Below are positions 33,873-52,091 of a stretch of 64,000 nt of DNA, in pieces; the stretch's first letter is position 1; each line of letters starts with the position of its first letter. The stretch spans positions 549 to 64,548 of the forward strand of contig CAXBLT010000017.1 in the NCBI GenBank assembly GCA_963976795.1. Direction: 5' to 3'. Below the pieces are notes generated by a model, which saw only the letters and a list, made by a program, of their open reading frames with translations, searched no databases and had not been told where the DNA came from. A program made the position numbers and the translations under genes. The DNA is from an uncultured Gammaproteobacteria bacterium. GTDB taxonomy: Bacteria > Pseudomonadota > Gammaproteobacteria > Eutrophobiales > Eutrophobiaceae.

Positions 33873-34330
33873 CTCTATAATATTTCATATCCATGGTTAT
33901 CATTTCATTACGGAAGCGAAGAATATGATTTTGAACAGGGATTTGAACTTGAGGATATTTGGCAAAGACTCGATAGAGAAAAACAAAAAATCACTATGAT
34001 ATATCTTCAAAAATTGATGATATAAGAAAATATAAAATTGAACCTATAGTATTAGTGTTGATTAGTTTTATTTTCCCTTATGACTTGCCGAAGGATTCTT
34101 CTATTTTAATGGTTGAGCAACATGGATGTTGCGAAAGCGTATTGACGACAGGGACATCGTCTATACGCGTGCCGTTGAAATGAAATAACCCCGAGGGTCT
34201 CCGTAGGACAAGTCATTGGGGTGCCCTTTTTTCTTGGTGTCTTCTTTTTTTGGGCAAGCAAAAAAGAAGTTACTCGCCGTAAAAGGCGAAACTAACGTAA
34301 AAAAGAATAATGAAGTTATTATTTGACTGG

Positions 34331-41358: not shown

Positions 41359-44300
41359 TTGATGTTAATACTGCCCGGCGGTAACGCCCTTTCTGAATTT
41401 CGTGTTAATAAACTTTTATTTGCCTTGCAATCATGCATACCGGCAATTAGCTCGGTTGAGTCATATTATATTCATTTTGCTGAAACGAGTTCAGACCTCA
41501 ATCAAAAAGAAACGACCCAACTTAATGCCCTGCTGAATTACGGTGCTGCGGTCAAACATGTTGCTGTCGATTCATTCAATCTTATTATTATTCCAAGACC
41601 CGGCACTATTTCTCCCTGGTCCAGTAAGGCAAGCGACATAGTGCATAACTCAGGTTTGAACAAGATCATGCGTCTTGAACGCGGTAGAGTTTATTCATTT
41701 ACATTAAATGATGGCAACACACTAAATGAAAAACAAATAACGCTACTCAAGCCACATATACATGACCGTATGACAGAAATTCTCATAGATAATGAGAATG
41801 ATGCCAGTGCTTTATTTACTATTACTGAGCCTGCTGAATTGACTCAGGTAGATATCATCAACGCGGGTATAGAGGCACTGGAAACTGCCAATACTGAAAT
41901 GGGCCTGGCTTTATCAAATGACGAGATTAGTTACTTGTTCAGCTCGTTTAAAACGTTGGGGCGTAACCCAACAGATGTAGAATTGATGATGTTTGCACAA
42001 GCCAACTCTGAGCATTGCAGACACAAGATATTCAACGCTGAGTGGACTATCGATAACGTTAAACAAGAACATTCATTGTTTAAGATGATAAGACAAACCC
42101 ATGAAGCCAATCCGGGGAATGTGCTTTCTGCCTATCACGATAATGCCGCCGTTATGGCCGGTTTTAATGGTGCACGATTTTTCACCGACCCAATTAATCA
42201 TCACTATGGTTATCATGATGAAGATATCCATATCCTGATGAAGGTTGAGACGCACAACCATCCAACCGCGATATCACCTTACCCCGGCGCGGCAACTGGT
42301 TCAGGTGGAGAAATTCGCGATGAAGCAGCAACCGGGCGTGGTGCAAAACCAAAGGCTGGTCTAAGTGGTTTTGCCGTCTCAAACCTGAAGATACCTGGAT
42401 TTGAACAAGCCTGGGAAACTGACAACGGCAAACCAGATCGAATTGTATCGGCTTTAGATATTATGCTTGAAGGACCAATTGGCGCAGCGGCCTATAATAA
42501 TGAATTTGGTCGTCCGGCATTGTGTGGTTATTTCCGCACCTATGAACAACGTAAAGATGAAACCTTAATTTACGGTTATCACAAACCGATCATGCTTGCT
42601 GGCGGTTACGGTATGATTCGAGAACCAGATGTACATAAGCAAGATATTCCTACAGGGGCAAAGCTAATAGTATTGGGCGGCCCCGCAATGTTGATTGGAC
42701 TCGGTGGTGGCGCGGCCTCATCAATGGCGTCAGGTTCAAGTGACGCTTCATTAGATTTCGCTTCAGTGCAACGCGATAACCCCGAGATGGAACGACGTTG
42801 TCAGGAAGTCATCGATCGATGTTGGGCATTAGGAGATAACAACCCCATTATTAGTATTCATGATGTTGGTGCTGGAGGTCTATCCAACGCCATGCCTGAA
42901 CTTGTGAGCGCAAGTAATCGTGGTGCACAACTGGAACTACGCGAGATTCCGAATGATGAACCCGGCATGTCGCCTATGGGGGTTTGGTGTAATGAGTCTC
43001 AAGAACGCTACGTGCTTGCAATTGCAGAGGAACAACTTGATCGCTTTACGTCATTATGTGAACGAGAACGCGCACCTTACGCGGTACTCGGCGATGCAAC
43101 TGCAAAAGAGCAACTCGTCTTGAACGATGCCCATTTCAGTAATCAAGCAATTGATATACCGATGTCAGTATTACTTGGCAAGATGCCAAACATACAGCGC
43201 GATGTGCAGAGTGAAACTACTCAGCACACTGAATTTGATACTTCAACATTAGATTTATATGAATCAATTGATCGGGTGCTACAACTGCCTACCGTTGCCA
43301 GTAAAAATTTCTTAATTACGATTGGTGATCGTTCAATCTCTGGTTTGGTTGTACGCGATCAGATGGTCGGCCCCTGGCAAGTACCCGTTGCAGATTGTGC
43401 TGTTACCAGTTCATCTTATTTTGATTACATAGGCGAAGCGATGGCTATTGGTGAACGTGCCCCACTTGCACTGATCAATGCAGCGGCTTCCGGACGCATG
43501 GCCATTGCCGAAGCCATTATGAATATATCTGCAGCACGTATCATCAAATTAGAAGATATTGCTCTTTCAGCAAACTGGATGGCGGCCTGTGGTGAGACGG
43601 GGCAAGACGCAAAACTTTATAGCGCCGTTGCTGCGGTTAGTGATCTTTGTAAAACACTAGGTATTGCAATACCTGTCGGCAAGGATTCTTTGTCGATGAA
43701 TACGGTTTGGTCTAAAAACAATCAACAACAAAAAGTAACATCACCGTTGTCGTTAAATATCACGGCTTTTGCACGGGTTGCAGATGTTCGGCACTCACTG
43801 ACACCACAATTACACCAAGATGATGATACCGTTCTACTTTATATTGATTTAGCCAAAGGTAAACAGCGCCTTGCTGGCTCTGCCCTATGCCAGGTGTATG
43901 AACAATTCGGTAATGAAACTCCTGATCTGGATGACCCAAATATACTCATTGTTTTTTTTCAAGCCTTACAGATCCTCAATGAATCAGATTATATTCTTGC
44001 ATACCATGATCGGTCGGATGGGGGTCTGTTTGTCACACTGGCTGAAATGGCCTTCGCTGGACACACCGGGATTGATATTGAGCTTGCATACACCAATGAC
44101 ATCATCGCCAATTTATTTAATGAAGAACTCGGTGCCGTCATTCAAATAAAAAGAGCGCATGAACAAAGTGTAAAACAAACTTTTATAAATGCCGGCATAG
44201 AAGAACGGACACTTCATACTATCGGCACCATTAACAATGATTATACGTTTAGACTCGCGCAAGATGGGACGAACAATCTGGAATTACCGGTTAATGAGTT

Positions 44301-45228
44301 ACATAAAAAATGGTCTGCTACCAGCTTTCAAATTCAATCCCTCCGCGATAACCCTGATTGTGCACGACAGGAATTTGATAACATAGGTGATCAAAATGAT
44401 TCTGGCTTGTTTGTCGACACCACGTTTGAGCTCGAGAGTAATCCGCTTGTCTTTATCAACACCGATGTAAAACCAAAGATGGCGATACTGCGGGAGCAAG
44501 GCGTTAACGGACAATTAGAAATGGCGGCGGCATTTGATCGTGCTGGATTTGACTGCGTTGATGTTCACATGCAGGATTTAATTGACGGTCAAATCAAGCT
44601 TGATTCATTTAATGGTCTGGTTGCCTGTGGCGGGTTTTCTTATGGTGATGTCTTGGGCGCTGGTGGTGGCTGGGCAAAGTCTATTTTGTACAATGACAAG
44701 ATCAGCAAGATGTTTGAAACATTTTTTAAGCGTACCGATACTTTTTCCCTTGGTGTCTGTAATGGCTGCCAAATGATGTCACAACTACGTGACTTGATCC
44801 CAGGCGCAACATCATGGCCTGATTTCATTCGTAATCAATCAGAACAATTTGAGGCGCGACTGGTCATGGTGGAGATAATGGAATCACCTTCTATTTTATT
44901 CAAAGACATGGTTGGGTCTAAAATGCCTGTCGTAGTTGCCCATGGTGAAGGTCGTGTCTCATATAAATCTACAGATTTAATATCAAATGCTGCTATGCGC
45001 TATATTGATAATACCGGTGTAGTGACAGAAAATTACCCTCATAACCCGAATGGTTCTATTAACGGATGTACCGGGTTCACAAATGATGACGGGCGCATCA
45101 ATATCATGATGCCGCATCCAGAACGCGTCTTTTTGCGTAAGCAATTTTCATATTTACCTTCACAATGGGTCAATGAATATAGCCCATGGATAAAAATGTT
45201 CTTGAATGCACGAGATTGGTTAAATTAA
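41359..45228 (+). CDS. purL: Phosphoribosylformylglycinamidine synthase (single-chain)
   Basis: 1289 aa. PurL and PurM-like domains plus C-terminal glutamine amidotransferase with catalytic GVCNGCQ. Confidence 0.96.
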   Translation: MMLILPGGNALSEFRVNKLLFALQSCIPAISSVESYYIHFAETSSDLNQKETTQLNALLNYGAAVKHVAVDSFNLIIIPRPGTISPWSSKASDIVHNSGLNKIMRLERGRVYSFTLNDGNTLNEKQITLLKPHIHDRMTEILIDNENDASALFTITEPAELTQVDIINAGIEALETANTEMGLALSNDEISYLFSSFKTLGRNPTDVELMMFAQANSEHCRHKIFNAEWTIDNVKQEHSLFKMIRQTHEANPGNVLSAYHDNAAVMAGFNGARFFTDPINHHYGYHDEDIHILMKVETHNHPTAISPYPGAATGSGGEIRDEAATGRGAKPKAGLSGFAVSNLKIPGFEQAWETDNGKPDRIVSALDIMLEGPIGAAAYNNEFGRPALCGYFRTYEQRKDETLIYGYHKPIMLAGGYGMIREPDVHKQDIPTGAKLIVLGGPAMLIGLGGGAASSMASGSSDASLDFASVQRDNPEMERRCQEVIDRCWALGDNNPIISIHDVGAGGLSNAMPELVSASNRGAQLELREIPNDEPGMSPMGVWCNESQERYVLAIAEEQLDRFTSLCERERAPYAVLGDATAKEQLVLNDAHFSNQAIDIPMSVLLGKMPNIQRDVQSETTQHTEFDTSTLDLYESIDRVLQLPTVASKNFLITIGDRSISGLVVRDQMVGPWQVPVADCAVTSSSYFDYIGEAMAIGERAPLALINAAASGRMAIAEAIMNISAARIIKLEDIALSANWMAACGETGQDAKLYSAVAAVSDLCKTLGIAIPVGKDSLSMNTVWSKNNQQQKVTSPLSLNITAFARVADVRHSLTPQLHQDDDTVLLYIDLAKGKQRLAGSALCQVYEQFGNETPDLDDPNILIVFFQALQILNESDYILAYHDRSDGGLFVTLAEMAFAGHTGIDIELAYTNDIIANLFNEELGAVIQIKRAHEQSVKQTFINAGIEERTLHTIGTINNDYTFRLAQDGTNNLELPVNELHKKWSATSFQIQSLRDNPDCARQEFDNIGDQNDSGLFVDTTFELESNPLVFINTDVKPKMAILREQGVNGQLEMAAAFDRAGFDCVDVHMQDLIDGQIKLDSFNGLVACGGFSYGDVLGAGGGWAKSILYNDKISKMFETFFKRTDTFSLGVCNGCQMMSQLRDLIPGATSWPDFIRNQSEQFEARLVMVEIMESPSILFKDMVGSKMPVVVAHGEGRVSYKSTDLISNAAMRYIDNTGVVTENYPHNPNGSINGCTGFTNDDGRINIMMPHPERVFLRKQFSYLPSQWVNEYSPWIKMFLNARDWLN

Positions 45229-45351: not shown

Positions 45352-45894
45352 ATGAAAAAATCTTCCGGTATTTCAGACGAAGACAGTGCGTTATTTCGTC
45401 AATCAGTTGGCGATGCCCGGCCATTAAAGCAAGATAGTTTTATTGCTGAGAAACCAAAACCCAAAGCTCACCCTGCGAAAACAGAAGCCGATAACCTTGC
45501 GGTCCTTGAGGAAATGAGTGTCGCAGACTTTGACTTCGCTCTTTTGGAGAGAGGAGATGAGCTTTTCTATACCAGTCCTGGACTACAAAATAATATATTA
45601 AAAAAATTACGCCGAGGTCATTATAAGATTGAAGCAGAATTGGATTTGCACGGCATGACGGTTGATAGTGCTAAGATTGCATTAACTGATTTCCTTAAGC
45701 AATGTACAGTACGCTCTCAACGCTGCGTTAGAATCATTCACGGAAAAGGGTTGGGTTCCGTCAACAAACAACCGGTTATAAAAAACAAACTTAATCAATG
45801 GCTACAAAAAATGGACATTGCACAAGCCTTCTGTTCGGCAAGACCTGCTGATGGCGGTACCGGTGCAATTTATTTGTTATTAAAACGTAAATGA
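45352..45894 (+). CDS. Smr-domain protein (SmrA/YdaL-like)
   Basis: C-terminal Smr motif LDLHGMTVDSA...IIHGKGLGS. 180 aa. Confidence 0.8.
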   Translation: MKKSSGISDEDSALFRQSVGDARPLKQDSFIAEKPKPKAHPAKTEADNLAVLEEMSVADFDFALLERGDELFYTSPGLQNNILKKLRRGHYKIEAELDLHGMTVDSAKIALTDFLKQCTVRSQRCVRIIHGKGLGSVNKQPVIKNKLNQWLQKMDIAQAFCSARPADGGTGAIYLLLKRK

Positions 45895-46175
45895 TGAGAA
45901 ACAGAAGTATTAATAAATAAAAAAGTAGTATGACAGTAACCCGATAATGATTTAGCTTCGCTGTTTGTTACCTACACAAGAGCATCTAGTGTCAGGTAAT
46001 ATCAGGTTTAGATATCACTGAAGAATATCAAAATCAGGTTTCGAGCAAAAATTATCACTAATAACACACATATAGAACTTAATGACGGTTTATCTGTTCT
46101 AAAAACGTGCATCATTCACTATACTTGTATTATTATTCAATAATTAATAAGAATAGTAAGATTCAGGGATAAGAT

Positions 46176-47252
46176 ATGATGTTATCACGTCTGAGTAACG
46201 TTGCTGGAAGTAAAACTTCATCAATAATATATATTGTCGATGATGAACCTGTCAGCAGAATGTTACTGAGTAAAACTATTGAGAATATTAATTCTGAAAT
46301 AACTGTAAAGTCATTTCAAAGTGCACCTGCAGCACTTGCCGCGCTTGAGACCTCCCCGCCCGACTTGATAATCACTGATTACAAAATGCCTATCATGAAC
46401 GGTGTTGAATTCACCAAACGGATTAGAAGACTGCATAATTGTAAAGACATCCCGATCATCATGATAACGATTATTGATGATCGTTCTGTTCTATACGACG
46501 CATTAAAAAGCGGGGTTACAGAGTTTCTTAATAAGCCATTTGATAAAGTTGAATGCGAAGCACGGTGTAAGAATTTATTGGCTCTGGGAAAACGTCAAAC
46601 AAAATTAAAACAACGTAGCTTTAAACTTGAAAAAAAGATCAGTGAAACTTCAGAGGAAATTCATGTCAGAGAAAAAGAAACATTAATACGTTTAACGAGG
46701 GCATGTGGATTTAAGGATTGCGTCACAGGTGAGCATCTCCTCAGAATTGGTCGAATAAGCAGGATTCTTGCACTGGAACTGGGCTTTGATGAAACATTCG
46801 CAGAAATACTGGAAACATCTTCCCCGTTACATGATATTGGGAAACTGGCTATACCAGACAATATTTTGATGAAAAAAGGTAAGCTGACTGAACAAGAGTT
46901 TGACATTATGAAGACACACACAACAATTGGTCATGAAATACTCAAAGACAGCCCATCACCTTATTTACAAACAGGCGCATTAATTGCTCTTAATCATCAT
47001 GAAAAATATGATGGTAGCGGTTATCCAAATAAAATACCGGGAAAGGATATTCCTATAGAAGCCAGAATCGTTGCCGTTGCAGATGTATTTGACTCATTAA
47101 GCAACCATAGGCCCTATAAAAAAGCCTGGCCAATCAACAAAACTATTGATTATCTGGTAGAACAACAGGGGCAGCATCTTGATCCGGAGTGTGTGAAGGC
47201 ATTATTGAGTAGAATTGATGATGTAGAACTACCGCCAAAAAAAACACAATAA
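46176..47252 (+). CDS. rpfG: Two-component response regulator with HD-GYP phosphodiesterase domain (RpfG-like)
   Basis: REC domain IYIVDDEP...DLIITDYKMPIMNG. HD-GYP motifs HDIGK and HHEKYDGSGYP. Confidence 0.85.
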   Translation: MMLSRLSNVAGSKTSSIIYIVDDEPVSRMLLSKTIENINSEITVKSFQSAPAALAALETSPPDLIITDYKMPIMNGVEFTKRIRRLHNCKDIPIIMITIIDDRSVLYDALKSGVTEFLNKPFDKVECEARCKNLLALGKRQTKLKQRSFKLEKKISETSEEIHVREKETLIRLTRACGFKDCVTGEHLLRIGRISRILALELGFDETFAEILETSSPLHDIGKLAIPDNILMKKGKLTEQEFDIMKTHTTIGHEILKDSPSPYLQTGALIALNHHEKYDGSGYPNKIPGKDIPIEARIVAVADVFDSLSNHRPYKKAWPINKTIDYLVEQQGQHLDPECVKALLSRIDDVELPPKKTQ

Positions 47253-47270
47253 TGGTTTCATTGTGTAACC

Positions 47271-49826
47271 ATGAAAAATAAATTAGTACACTTAGTTAAA
47301 ACTCGTTTGCAAAACCGCGAAGATTCTGAGCACATACAAACCGTTGTCAGATTTGCCATGGGTGTTACCTGGCTGCTATATATATCGTGGTTAAATCGAT
47401 TTACACACATTGATTCTGCTGCTGCAACGGCGACATCGTATTTGTATATTATTTGCTGTCTTCTAAATCTGGTTTGGATAGTGATTACTCCAAAACCGCT
47501 TCCCGTTCGTCGCTACGTTAGCATTTTTCTTGATATATCATTTGCATCGTTTGCATTTTATCTTATAGGAGAATATGGGGCACCCTTGATTGGCGCATAT
47601 TTATTTTTAATATTTGGCTATGGATTTCGATACGGAAATAAGTATTTATACATAAGTACCGCCATCAGTATTGCTGGAGTTTCTTTGGTGATGATATACA
47701 GCTCTTATTGGCAAAAAGAGATCATGCATGGATACGGTGCCATTATTTCAATAACGATCCTATCTGCTTATGTCTCGACATTGATATCACTACTGCATAA
47801 ATCAATTAATGAAGCCAACTCCGCAAATGAAGCGAAAAGTCAATTTCTGGCAAATATGAGTCATGAAATTCGTACACCGTTGAACGGTGTGGTCGGGATG
47901 AGTTCATTGCTTTCCACAACTGAACTCAATAGTAAGCAACAAGAGTATTCATCGACTATTAATGCTTCGGCCAAAACATTGTTGGCATTAATCAATGATA
48001 TCCTCGATATTTCAAAAATAGAGGCAGGAAAGATAACGATAGAACAAGTAGATTTTGATCTGCATGCTCTTATTAACTCAACAAGTAAAATGCTCTCTCC
48101 ACAAGCGGTAAATAAAGGACTGAAGTTTAACGTTCATATCTCACCTGAGGTTCCTTTTTTACTACGTGGTGATGAGCAACATTTAAGACAAGTACTGATT
48201 AATCTTATTAGTAATGCTATCAAATTCACACAAAATGGTTCTATTGAAATAGTTTTATCTTTAGTCTCAACAGCAGAAAATAAAGCCAGAATAATGTTTA
48301 AAGTCATCGATACGGGAATTGGTATCGCAAATGAATCAAAAGACAATATATTTGAAAAATTTACTCAGGCAGATGCTTCTACAACTCGTAATTTTGGCGG
48401 GACAGGACTTGGGATGGCCATTGCCAAACAATTAGTTAATGCAATGCACGGAGAAATAGATTTCACCAGTGTGTTAGGAGAAGGTTCAACGTTCTGGTTT
48501 AGTTTGGAATTTGAACAACAAACCGTATTGTCAGAAGAAAACCAGTCACTGGAACATTTCTCTGGTGCCCATATTTTAATCATCAACCCAATAAAAGAAA
48601 AACAACAGACTATCCAGGAACACCTCTCATTGTGGCCAATATCATATAAACAATCTGACCGTGCTCAAGATGCGATAGATATGATCATGTCTGCTAACGC
48701 TGAAAATAATTCGTTTAATGTCATCCTTGTTTTCAAGAAGTATCTTGACACAGACCCTGTTAATTTTATTAAGCAGGCTACAACAAAATCAAGCTTCAAA
48801 GACCATTCATTCATACTCATAAATGATAACGAATTACCTGAGTCCGGAAAAACAGATCTATTACAGGCAGGCTATGCCTCCATAATACGTAGTAATCTTG
48901 ATAGAACAAAATTCTTCAGGACATTGCATGCCGTTATTTCTGGTGTCAGTGCCATATCACCTAATAATAACATTCGTGGTTTTGATAATAAGTCAGCTGA
49001 TATAACTCAAGTAAAAAAACTAGAAATACTCGTTGGTGAAGATAACAAGACAAACCAACAAGTAATCAAAAGTATTCTGGAATATGCTAACCATCATGTA
49101 ACACTAGCTAATAATGGAGAAGAAGTATTAGATATTTTGGAAGAAGATACATTTGATCTGATTATTCTTGATATGCAGATGCCTGTTATGGGCGGAATAG
49201 AGGCTGCAAAAATATATCGTCACATGTATCCGGAGAAACGCAGTATTCCAATATTGATGCTAACAGCTAATGCTACAAAGGAAGCTCATGATGCATGCAA
49301 GGAGGCAAAACTGGATGCTTATTTAACCAAACCCGTAGAACCGGATAAACTTGTCAAGGTTATCGCTTCGCTTGTCGGTGACGACCATGAGGAAACACCG
49401 GTTGCTAGCAATGAGGCATTAAAAGTTGTTGATATAAATAATCCTAATAATTCGCCATTAATAGACAAAGACTCTTTGGAGTCTTTGGCTTCTATGGCCA
49501 GCGACAAATCATTTATGAAAACCTTAATAGAAGGTTACTTACGTGACACTGCTAATTCTCTAAAACACATGTCCCAATTTTCCAGTGATGACGATTACAA
49601 TAAATTATCAGAACTTGCTCATAGTGTCGATGGAAGTTCTCGTTCAATTGGTACTAAAAGATTATCAAGAATTGCCGACTTAATATATAAACAAGCCCAA
49701 TCCAGACAACACAAACTAATTTTAAACAATCTGGATTTAATCAATAGCGTATTCGAAGAAACACAAACTGAATTAAAATCATTCCTTTCAAAGACTGCTT
49801 CATCAAATTCGCAACAAAATAGCTAA
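47271..49826 (+). CDS. rpfC: Hybrid sensor histidine kinase (RpfC-like). Architecture: membrane sensor, HisKA, HATPase, pseudo-receiver, receiver, HPt
   Basis: About 5 N-terminal TM helices. H-box [12 protein letters not shown]-boxes DTGIGI and GGTGLGMAI. Receiver [12 protein letters not shown]-terminal HPt motif [11 protein letters not shown]. Confidence 0.85.
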
Positions 49827-49848
49827 GTTAATACATCAAGTTTTATAA

Positions 49849-49874
49849 TTAATGGGACATCCTTGTCTCATTAA
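49849..49874. terminator. Hairpin between convergent rpfC and desaturase genes
   Basis: ttaatgggaca-tcct-tgtctcattaa, an 11-bp stem with one G-U pair. Confidence 0.45.
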
Positions 49875-49902
49875 TAAAATGCTTATCTAATTTATAATTT
49901 AG

Positions 49903-50988
49903 TTATGCTGCTTTTGCATAACCCTTTTCTTCTATTAATACTGTTTTGTTACTAGTTGCATTTCCTGAAAAATCCATCCATAAATGATTATCATAATCAT
50001 ATAATTTGCATTTTCCCATCGTTGCAAAAAAGCTCACTAGTGAAAAGTCCATCGTAATTAAATCCTCTCCGTACAACTCACATAGAACTGTCTGTGCTTT
50101 TGATAAATTATAGAGAGGTATTCTCGGATCAACATGATGCGCCGTGTGCTCCATTGCATTGTGACTAATCAAATTATACCAATGCGGATATTTTATATGC
50201 ACAGTTATATCTTCGAGAGTTGCGTATGCATTACATTCTTTTTGAGTCTTAAACCATGGAACAGTTTCGTGAGTATGATGTTGATACACAGTCACTCCTA
50301 TCAAGAAATTACTTACAAGAAAAGGAAGCACTAGTCCTAACAATATTACTTCTAACGGACTTGTGTATGCGACGTGCATCCCCATATAAATAAGTACTGT
50401 TGTAAAAGCTGCCATATAACTAACTACTAGTACGAAATCCAGAAAATAAGCACCATTTTTCTGTTTGATAATTCGTTTGTATGGAAAAAACTTATCTTTC
50501 CACCAACGTTCAATCATGTAGTTGAAACAAATTCCTAGTGGAGAACGATATAAATGTTCTATCAGCTTTCGACTTGCAGACAAACCATCATATTCTTCTT
50601 TTGACAATGGCGACCATGAATTTATACCTTTAATGTTAGGAGATTGATGGTGTGAGCGATTATGTGCGATTAACCATAAACTGTAATTATGAAATGAAGG
50701 TAAAAAGGCTATGCGGCCTATTATAGAATTCCATACTCGGTTGGATGTAAAACTATCATGTCCCGCATCATGTGAAACCAGGAATAACGTCCCTATTCTC
50801 AGCCCTGCTATAACACTACATGTTATTCTTAACAGCAGGCTTTCAAACATGATTGTCCCGGCTATCGCCAATGCATAGATAGTGAGATCAGAAAAAAATA
50901 TAAATAATGCAAGTTTATTTGATGGTTTTGCGTACTGTTTTATTGAGTGCCGTAACTCTTTTGTATTTAAATTATTCATTATAATCAC
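49903..50988 (-). CDS. Integral-membrane fatty-acid desaturase family protein
   Basis: Three histidine boxes, HDAGHD, HNRSHH and HTAHH, with multiple TM segments, as in PF00487 desaturases. 36 nt downstream of the rpfF-like gene. Confidence 0.8.
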   Translation of the reverse strand: MIIMNNLNTKELRHSIKQYAKPSNKLALFIFFSDLTIYALAIAGTIMFESLLLRITCSVIAGLRIGTLFLVSHDAGHDSFTSNRVWNSIIGRIAFLPSFHNYSLWLIAHNRSHHQSPNIKGINSWSPLSKEEYDGLSASRKLIEHLYRSPLGICFNYMIERWWKDKFFPYKRIIKQKNGAYFLDFVLVVSYMAAFTTVLIYMGMHVAYTSPLEVILLGLVLPFLVSNFLIGVTVYQHHTHETVPWFKTQKECNAYATLEDITVHIKYPHWYNLISHNAMEHTAHHVDPRIPLYNLSKAQTVLCELYGEDLITMDFSLVSFFATMGKCKLYDYDNHLWMDFSGNATSNKTVLIEEKGYAKAA

Positions 50989-51024
50989 CTGTTCCTAAGC
51001 TTGTTTAATTGTTTTACGTAATAA

Positions 51025-51930
51025 TCAAGATACACTTACTTTTGAATATTCATGCTGGTATTCTGTCTCGTACCTTTTCTGACTACGCAACAAACGATTG
51101 ATTGTCCTAATATCTTTATCAGAGATATCAAAAACTGTATCAACCCAAGAGTCACAGCAAATATCCATCAGCTCCTGTTGGTCATAGTGATTTAAATTTT
51201 GAACTATTTTTTGCATCGCCATATTTCCATTCCAGTTTTTATTATGGTTTTGGACATATGAATAAACGGCCTCTTCGCCGCAGTGATCATCCACAAGAAC
51301 ATCAATAATTCCCATGTCATATAATTCTTCTGCGCTATATAAATTACCGCTGGAAATCAGTTTATGAGCCTTGTTTAACCCTATTCTTGATGAGAGTGTC
51401 TGGAATGCCCCCATGCCAGGAAAACAATTAAACAATATTTCAGGAAAACCCATCATTGCTGAACGCTCTGCAATGATCACGTCACCTGATAATGCTATTT
51501 CAAAGCCACCACCAAGTGCATTTCCCCTAACCAAAGATATAGTGACAATGGGTAAATTAAAATTTGTCATTATCGGATAGATCGCTTTTATACAATTAGC
51601 TGCGTATTTCTCCAGAGCTATTCTGTCCTTGTTTTTAATACAATTTAAAAAATGATTGAGGTCACCACCTAAACTAAAGACTCCATTCGCGTGTGAATCA
51701 AGAATGTGATACTTAACCGTTTGCATTTCTCCATCAATGGGTAGCTGTCCATTATTAATTTCAATACATCGATGCAAAGTTCGAATATCATCAACTAATT
51801 GTGGCGTTACACACGGCTTTGGAAATGCATCCAGGTAAACCCAAACTATTCCATCATCAGCATCAAATTCATAATTAATGTGTTCAAGCTTATTGATCGT
51901 ATTTTTCAAATTAAAATTTAACGTACTCAT
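51025..51930 (-). CDS. rpfF: Enoyl-CoA hydratase/crotonase-family DSF synthase (RpfF-like)
   Basis: VRGNALGGGFEIALSGDVIIAERSAMMGFPEILFNCFPGMGAF...GNLYSAEEL closely parallels Xanthomonas RpfF (VQGNALGGGFEAALSCHTIIAEEGVMMGLPEVLFDLFPGMGAY...GNLYSAEQL). 301 aa. Confidence 0.8.
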   Translation of the reverse strand: MSTLNFNLKNTINKLEHINYEFDADDGIVWVYLDAFPKPCVTPQLVDDIRTLHRCIEINNGQLPIDGEMQTVKYHILDSHANGVFSLGGDLNHFLNCIKNKDRIALEKYAANCIKAIYPIMTNFNLPIVTISLVRGNALGGGFEIALSGDVIIAERSAMMGFPEILFNCFPGMGAFQTLSSRIGLNKAHKLISSGNLYSAEELYDMGIIDVLVDDHCGEEAVYSYVQNHNKNWNGNMAMQKIVQNLNHYDQQELMDICCDSWVDTVFDISDKDIRTINRLLRSQKRYETEYQHEYSKVSVS

Positions 51931-52091
51931 ATGTAGTCTCCTGTTTATTTGACTTACTAATTTAGTTAATTGAAAACAGAGTCATTAAAACAAGCTTAAC
52001 GCCAAAACACGAAATGACCCGGAATCGTTTAACGATGGATCAAATTTAAAAGACTAAAATGAAATTTAAAAGAAAAGAATTTTCAGAAAAA

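Follow-up and report, generated by a model that had tools for sequence, protein, structure and literature searches.

A membrane fatty-acid desaturase gene paired with an RpfF-like synthase gene in a DSF-type signalling module of an uncultured marine gammaproteobacterium

A 64,000-nt stretch of DNA from an uncultured marine gammaproteobacterium (contig CAXBLT010000017.1; hereafter the window, with positions counted from its first letter) raises the question of why a gene for a membrane fatty-acid desaturase should directly follow a gene resembling rpfF, which encodes the synthase that makes signals in the family of diffusible signal factor (DSF). Such signals have been described from a small number of cultured pathogens, and their structural variety (chain length, branching, second double bond) is put down to the fatty-acid synthase pool and not to enzymes dedicated to tailoring. 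Four genes in the window make up a DSF-type fatty-acid signalling module: rpfF and the desaturase gene form a pair on the minus strand, and rpfG and rpfC, on the plus strand, converge on that pair. Based on the comparisons described below, we consider it very probable that the desaturase is functionally coupled to this module. Our best explanation of the locus as a whole, a four-gene DSF module whose desaturase tailors the product of RpfF, is one on which our confidence is evenly divided.

The four genes and the signals around them

The first member of the minus-strand pair (51025–51930) encodes a 301-aa protein of the crotonase/enoyl-CoA hydratase family. Pfam and NCBIfam searches support every domain assignment made in the four-gene block; for this protein, the Pfam ECH_1 model (PF00378; 88 bits versus a cutoff of 27) indicates a crotonase fold and the NCBIfam PRK08788 model NF006452 is passed (313.9 bits versus a cutoff of 177), while the curated RpfF equivalog model NF053515 is not (199 bits versus a cutoff of 550). 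The closest solved structures are Xanthomonas RpfF (3m6m, E 1e-46), 7zq7, and the Burkholderia/Cronobacter-type enzymes 5fus (E 1e-42) and 6dgn. The catalytic glutamates E144 and E164 (GGGFE...PE) align with those of 3m6m (E141 and E161 in Xanthomonas campestris pv. campestris, Xcc) and are invariant in 19 diverse homologues. Joint Genome Institute (JGI) pipelines label homologues of the protein “DSF synthase”. An earlier reading of the DNA from its letters alone (the sequence-only reading) had proposed an RpfF-like identity, and with 3m6m and 5fus as the best solved relatives and both catalytic residues conserved, this identity stands. The crotonase is thus RpfF-like and a candidate DSF synthase, with predicted dehydratase and thioesterase activity. 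Upstream of the gene, the region 51931–52091 (minus strand) is conserved at a mean identity of 87% across six relatives and contains a perfect palindrome, ATCGTT-A-AACGAT (52024–52036), that is unique in the window and could be a putative operator site.

The convergent plus-strand pair supplies the sensory half of the module. The 851-aa RpfC-like hybrid sensor histidine kinase (47271–49826) contains all four domains of its class (HisKA, HATPase_c, REC and Hpt), and its N-terminus reads R16-E-D18-S19-E20-H-I-Q23 just ahead of the first of about five hydrophobic segments that hydropathy analysis places between residues 25 and 176. Residues R15, D17, S18, E19 and Q22 of the 22-residue sensor of X. 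campestris RpfC are essential for DSF binding (PMC5391125); all five are identical in the window kinase, at a spacing equal to that of Xcc RpfC. The neighbouring RpfG-like regulator (46176–47252; 358 aa) combines a receiver domain (Response_reg, 89.9 bits) with an HD-GYP cyclic di-GMP (c-di-GMP) phosphodiesterase domain (HD_5, 121.6 bits), and HDIGK and GSGYP motifs are visible in its translation. Judged by its sequence features, that is, the sensor motif, the REC-HD-GYP regulator and the RpfF-like crotonase together, the cluster is a genuine DSF-type module. The sensory half varies among close relatives (survey loci are cited here by L numbers): in some, an additional RpfC-like paralogue (~50% identity) is encoded between rpfG and smr (L006, 12095–14590; L011, 12816–14042), and rpfG is absent from the locus in L010, L012, L013, L020 and L088.

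The desaturase gene (49903–50979) encodes a 358-aa membrane di-iron protein of the fatty-acid desaturase family (FA_desaturase, PF00487; 90.6 bits versus a cutoff of 29.7), in a Des/DesA-FAD-like branch. Both minus-strand genes lie where the sequence-only reading had placed them, and the three His boxes that it listed are all present, HDAGHD at residue 70, HNRSHH at 106 and HTAHH at 278. Ten histidines (H70, H74, H97, H106, H110, H111, H235, H278, H281 and H282) are invariant in 70 homologues, and two hydrophobic hairpins span residues 22–68 and 177–232. The AlphaFold2 model (pLDDT 91.3) adopts a four-transmembrane (four-TM) di-iron fold, for which a Foldseek search of the PDB returned the Chlamydomonas FAD-like subunit FADL as top match (8xks_K; TM-score 0.76, E 7e-12), followed by AlkB (8sbb; E 3e-4), with no meaningful neighbours besides these two; a sequence-profile search of the PDB gave 8xks_K as its sole match. 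The desaturase fold and its metal-binding histidines are accordingly plain features of the protein.

The rpfF-desaturase spacer (50980–51024, minus strand) measures 45 nt from the likely start codon, ATG 50979. A same-strand gap of 36 nt had been proposed earlier; the short spacing holds and the value does not, since the GTG at 50988, the start on which that value was based, falls within an AGGTGA Shine-Dalgarno-like motif (50990–50985) located 5 nt 5′ of ATG 50979. Both the motif and the ATG are kept in close relatives, and public gene calls give the 358-aa ATG form. A search for terminator-like sites found none in the gap and a single match on the minus strand inside rpfF (51281–51266). From the shared strand, the short gap and the lack of a terminator-like site within it, we infer that rpfF and the desaturase are co-transcribed. 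An internal desaturase promoter was considered and rejected: the sole promoter-like match in the gap sets its -10 element on the start codon, and matches are fewer than in shuffled sequence.

Between the convergent stop codons of the desaturase and rpfC lies a conserved 11-bp inverted repeat, TTAATGAGACA-N4-TGTCCCATTAA (49849–49874, assigned to no strand). A hairpin closing the gene pair had been suggested, and a conserved inverted repeat does exist at this position; its reading as an intrinsic terminator was rejected given an AT-rich stem, no U-tract and a weak folding score (z = -1.4, with 20 of 200 shuffles folding as well or better). The repeat, imperfect and unique in the window, is conserved in sequence in six relatives and perfect in L005 and L007. 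It is possibly a bidirectional stem-loop or a protein-binding palindrome.

Distribution of the desaturase among rpf clusters

A scan with a desaturase profile over one genome per GTDB species yielded 80 loci. Among the gammaproteobacterial metagenome-assembled genomes (MAGs) whose loci include upstream sequence, rpfF lies immediately 5′ of the desaturase on the same strand in every case (19/19), with gaps of 17–90 nt between the two genes; the orthologues diverge down to 48% identity in the desaturase and 38% in RpfF. Where downstream sequence is available in this clade an RpfC-like gene converges on the pair, all of these loci lie between ispF and smr, and no orthologue of the desaturase was found apart from rpfF. 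The sequence-only reading had named lack of conservation in relatives as a ground for its refutation; the pairing proves to be conserved, and in other classes as well. One further contig, L005 (BQJP01000161.1, 2.7 kb), is labelled Thermodesulfobacteriota and encodes RpfF, desaturase and RpfC proteins 90–97% identical to those of the window; it is probably a mis-binned gammaproteobacterial contig.

Conservation within this clade is open to a simpler account, in which the desaturase was inserted beside rpfF once and carried along by synteny with no functional link. The neighbourhood pyrG-kdsA-eno-ftsB-ispD-ispF is itself syntenic in the clade, as far as purL, so that adjacency there is weak evidence, could reflect inherited synteny alone and is no proof of a functional link. 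What makes this account very improbable in our estimation is the recurrence of the desaturase in rpfF/rpfC clusters of other gene order and chromosomal context, in Alphaproteobacteria, Betaproteobacteria and another gammaproteobacterium. In Kiloniellales/Rhodospirillales the order is a gene for a hotdog-fold protein (discussed below), the desaturase, a ~580-nt gap and rpfF, followed by a convergent rpfC and a REC-PAS kinase gene. The betaproteobacterial loci L038 and L044 show rpfF, a convergent rpfC, the desaturase and then an HD-GYP regulator gene, with genes for an alpha/beta hydrolase and a LuxR solo between desaturase and regulator in L044; at another betaproteobacterial locus, L049, which lacks an HD-GYP regulator gene, the hotdog gene, the desaturase and rpfC are followed by a convergent rpfF. 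The order in L045, from a distant gammaproteobacterium, is rpfG, rpfF, rpfC, desaturase. In a neighbour-joining tree, desaturases linked to rpf genes fall inside one proteobacterial clade, its basal branches included, and the RpfF proteins that accompany them are dispersed over the RpfF tree. Recurrence over deep divergence and in rearranged clusters argues that the adjacency is not due to chance, and recurrence with different gene orders and contexts is stronger evidence of a functional link than synteny within the marine clade. Comparative gene order therefore presents the linkage of this desaturase subfamily to rpfF/rpfC clusters as conserved and rearrangement-resistant.

The view from RpfF also speaks against chance insertion with passive inheritance. 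In an RpfF-centred sample of 84 loci (80 from a metagenome scan with an RpfF profile, plus L085–L088), a desaturase lies near rpfF in just 2 of the 84, both belonging to the marine gammaproteobacterial clade. Among the 29 RpfF loci with at least 1.5 kb on each side, a convergent RpfC-like gene is present in 27 and an RpfG-like gene in 12. The sequence-only reading had the desaturase standing in place of an rpfB acyl-CoA ligase gene, a claim that does not survive this sample: an open reading frame (ORF) with an AMP-ligase signature occurs in 0/29 of the well-flanked RpfF loci and in 0/84 of the RpfF-centred loci by a rough, motif-based screen. Linkage to rpfB is thus not general, and the desaturase appears as an added accessory rather than a substitute. 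The widespread core, as these loci represent it, is rpfF with a convergent rpfC, and rpfB linkage is a xanthomonad feature. The same motif-based, rough screen found no AMP-ligase signature in the nine largest other ORFs of the window (at least 458 aa).

Furthermore, the desaturase is dispensable within the clade’s own chromosomal site. Of four genomes with RpfF homologues of ~43% identity, two (L085 and L086) carry rpfF-rpfC at the ispF-smr site with no desaturase and with the convergent genes 12–25 nt apart; L087 carries an rpf cluster at another site, likewise without a desaturase, and in L088 the desaturase is present. Since these sister genomes hold rpfF-rpfC without it, the desaturase is not needed for a signal of some kind to be made. 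In the RpfF tree, genomes whose rpf cluster at the ispF-smr site has no desaturase group into a single subclade next to those that contain it, which implies few gain or loss events; this subclade kept rpfF-rpfC and lost, or never had, the desaturase. Its RpfC sensor motif is degenerate (L085, L086, L090–L092 and L140; NDKTEREQ, SSADSENEQ, RGNTEFEQ), and that of desaturase-containing loci is mostly R-E-D-S-E-H-x-Q, with single-residue variants in L010, L020 and L055. The association of the desaturase with an intact RpfC sensor motif is a single evolutionary contrast and suggestive only.

Candidate roles of the desaturase

We propose the following route. RpfF would make a cis-2-enoyl fatty acid from a 3-hydroxyacyl group on acyl carrier protein (ACP), as its characterised relatives do, and the O2-dependent membrane desaturase would work on the same acyl chain, whether present as the free acid within the inner membrane or bound as a thioester, adding a further double bond or possibly a hydroxyl group. 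The tailored, lineage-specific DSF-family signal would then be emitted and sensed by the RpfC of the cluster, with c-di-GMP hydrolysis by RpfG as output. Both forms of substrate have precedents among enzymes of this kind: the membrane desaturase-family enzyme JamB acts on acyl-ACP (bioRxiv 10.1101/291195), polyyne desaturases have an ACP and a thioesterase as partners (PMC9828172), and UndB acts on free fatty acids in a pathway whose logic couples a thioesterase to a desaturase-like enzyme (PMC11204201).

A second conserved partner of the desaturase bears on its substrate. In 14 alpha- and betaproteobacterial loci (L018, L019, L024, L025, L026, L028, L031–L035, L040, L049 and L050), the gene directly upstream of the same desaturase subfamily, on the same strand, encodes a ~150-aa DUF4442 hotdog protein (for example L024, 6416–6886, plus strand). 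Three of these loci from Kiloniellales/Rhodospirillales and one from Betaproteobacteria also hold rpfF/rpfC; the other ten (Stellaceae and other alphaproteobacteria) lack rpf genes within 7 kb. The hotdog partner emerged from a targeted search, an earlier clustering of neighbours at Stellaceae-type loci having been confounded by spurious high-GC ORFs. Its sole relative in the PDB is the uncharacterised PA5026, and it matches no curated NCBIfam family; the hotdog fold is typical of acyl-thioester hydrolases and dehydratases. Going by gene order, hotdog and desaturase look like a second conserved two-gene module. Because the conserved upstream partner is always either RpfF or a hotdog protein predicted to act on thioesters, a free or thioester-bound acyl chain is favoured as substrate over bulk phospholipid.

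The main rival explanation places the desaturase in the membrane economy of the cell, as an ordinary Des/DesA-type acyl-lipid desaturase co-expressed with RpfF to adjust membrane unsaturation, whether to offset the drain of RpfF on acyl-ACP pools or to tune the membrane for the multi-TM RpfC, in an echo of the Bacillus des-desKR system. Several observations that favour this explanation also weigh against signal tailoring, as do the clade-wide synteny and the desaturase-free subclade described above. The nearest curated family is the Bacillus-type delta-5 acyl-lipid desaturase DesA (NF052548), which aligns over the full length and is not passed (75.6 bits versus a cutoff of 500), and JGI pipelines automatically name the homologues acyl-lipid delta-12 desaturases; given this nearest model and these labels, the default expectation for the branch is phospholipid substrates. 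The four-TM topology is the classical one, many members of the subfamily (Stellaceae and others) occur with no rpf genes within 7 kb, and the window cluster contains no gene for an ACP, a ligase or an electron donor. Moreover, every host of the pair is an uncultured MAG. Set against the acyl-lipid explanation are the gene’s confinement to the vicinity of rpfF throughout the gammaproteobacterial clade, its clean absence from the sister clade at the same locus, an alternative conserved partner, the hotdog protein, whose predicted role lies in thioester chemistry and not in lipid synthesis, and a regulator that is an HD-GYP phosphodiesterase rather than a DNA-binding protein of the DesR type. On balance, we regard an acyl-lipid role as unlikely.

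A role in signal turnover would reconcile the adjacency with an oxidative enzyme in another way: the desaturase would oxidise a DSF-type acid, by desaturation or hydroxylation, so as to inactivate it or mark it for degradation, as a functional counterpart of RpfB. The gene does adjoin rpfF in the same orientation, as rpfB does in xanthomonads (PMC4504480), and enzymes of the superfamily can hydroxylate, with AlkB a structural neighbour of the window protein. Co-expressing a synthase so tightly with its own destroyer, at the 17–90-nt spacing kept across the clade, would be wasteful, however; no sequence feature favours a hydroxylase over a desaturase, and the hotdog-desaturase pairs that lack rpfF misfit a quencher specific for DSF. 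We consider signal quenching improbable.

The partnership with thioester-cleaving enzymes also recalls UndB, the oxidative decarboxylase, in which case free fatty acids released by RpfF or by a hotdog thioesterase would be converted to volatile 1-alkenes. A thioesterase with a desaturase-like enzyme is indeed the logic of the UndB pathway (PMC11204201), and the conserved partners here are predicted to cleave thioesters. The His boxes are spaced differently, however (HELEHDLIH and HLHLNHHK in UndB versus HDAGH and HNRSHH here), and this explanation is scarcely credible. An UndB-type decarboxylase was rejected also by direct profile comparison: an hhalign run against UndB of Pseudomonas mendocina (query sequence taken from the supplementary information of PMC12746148) aligned 17 residues near the third His box at 0.5% probability.

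Among single mechanisms, tailoring of the signal molecule itself is the best that we can offer, and our confidence in it falls a little short of even. More tentatively still, a dedicated O2-dependent desaturase may turn the RpfF product into a di-unsaturated (or hydroxylated) one, which would define a hitherto unseen subclass of DSF signals in uncultured marine Gammaproteobacteria, Kiloniellales and some Betaproteobacteria; the identity of the signal would be gated by oxygen, and the hotdog-desaturase pairs of Alphaproteobacteria would make free unsaturated fatty-acid signals without RpfF.

Genomic context and relation to known systems

The four-gene block is placed between smr (45352–45894, plus strand), preceded by purL (41359–45228, plus strand), and the minus-strand genes ispF, ispD, ftsB, eno, kdsA and pyrG, which run from 52092 onward. 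Its G+C content (35–37% over 46000–52000) is below that of the flanking housekeeping genes (38–45%). Despite this lower G+C content, the same ispF-smr site is kept across deeply diverged genomes, which indicates that the insertion is old rather than recent. Elsewhere in the window, a TwoAYGGAY RNA motif (Rfam RF01731) lies at 34066–34229 on the plus strand (50.6 bits versus a gathering threshold of 43).

Other lipid-related genes accompany rpf clusters in the surveyed loci. In soil-type clusters, genes for a PlsC-like acyltransferase and a FabB/F-like ketoacyl-ACP synthase (KAS) lie between rpfF and the convergent rpfC (L133, 1881–4265; L138, 1825–4238; L146, 2061–3610; and L112), with a stand-alone ACP gene beside them in L133, L138 and L146; this acyltransferase-KAS(-ACP) set may be a dedicated precursor supply. 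In another lineage, a PF14518 protein (a haem-oxygenase-like iron-containing redox enzyme) is encoded between rpfF and rpfC in L139 (5998–6726, minus strand) and also in L165, L136 and L121; it, too, is a candidate for oxidative tailoring. Beta-type clusters repeatedly hold genes for an alpha/beta hydrolase (PF12146) and LuxR-type autoinducer-binding solos (L044, 8153–10007; L049, 3227–6238; L100, L104, L108, L113, L119, L124, L144 and L153), and a fused 2-oxoacid dehydrogenase E1 is encoded in L049, L108 and L156, with E2 identified after E1 in L049. Such a pattern, in which the core stays constant and the lipid enzymes around it vary, is in keeping with signal diversification, these enzymes forming a putative tailoring or precursor layer.

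A search of full-text literature found no report that connects an rpf cluster with a gene for a membrane desaturase; where DSF reviews speak of a “desaturase”, they refer to the dehydratase step of RpfF itself. The rpfF-desaturase pairing is a variant on a known DSF-type system for which we found no published description. If the desaturase tailors the signal, the conserved pair would be the first sign that DSF signals are tailored by enzymes, in parallel with the acyl-chain variation of N-acyl homoserine lactones and with the diversity of insect pheromones driven by desaturases. The pair occurs in uncultured marine bacteria that are abundant and were recovered in Tara Oceans assemblies, the rpfF-rpfC core with its shell of lipid enzymes provides a general handle for finding new fatty-acid signals, and the tailoring idea is directly testable with two synthetic genes in E. 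coli.

Among known systems, the module most closely recalls the rpf system of Xanthomonas, with which it shares an RpfF-type crotonase with both catalytic glutamates, adjacent synthase and sensor genes, a hybrid kinase with a short N-terminal R-x-D-S-E-H-x-Q sensor ahead of hydrophobic segments (about five by hydropathy in the window kinase), and a REC-HD-GYP regulator. It differs in its host, an uncultured marine gammaproteobacterium, in a synthase ~45% identical to the Xanthomonas enzyme and under the NCBI RpfF equivalog cutoff, in having a membrane desaturase downstream of rpfF, and in that no rpfB/FadD gene was found in the cluster or, by the motif-based screen, among the nine largest other ORFs of the window. 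With the Burkholderia cenocepacia system for the Burkholderia signal BDSF (RpfF_Bc, BCAM0581) it shares the synthase family, as the 5fus match and the PRK08788-type crotonases indicate; the window receptor is of the RpfC/RpfG type, however, and not the PAS-GGDEF-EAL protein RpfR, and no desaturase has been described at the Burkholderia BDSF locus (PMC4504480). The Bacillus des-desKR system likewise sets a desaturase gene beside that of a multi-TM sensor kinase (a five-TM thermosensor in Bacillus), and DesA is the closest curated model; in contrast to that system, the window has a hybrid kinase of the RpfC type that bears a DSF-sensor motif and, as regulator, a c-di-GMP phosphodiesterase instead of the transcription factor DesR, and the gene co-oriented with the desaturase encodes a crotonase. 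A working analogy extends to the JamB/TtuB acetylenases and the cay/pgn polyyne desaturase triad, where a membrane desaturase serves a small fatty-acyl product rather than membrane lipid and operates alongside partners that handle thioesters (bioRxiv 10.1101/291195; PMC9828172), although those clusters have an acyl-AMP ligase and an ACP of their own and the window cluster has neither. Finally, insect pheromone desaturases are, unlike the window enzyme, eukaryotic acyl-CoA desaturases; the likeness is one of concept and by analogy only, in that the diversification of desaturases there gives rise to species-specific signals derived from fatty acids.

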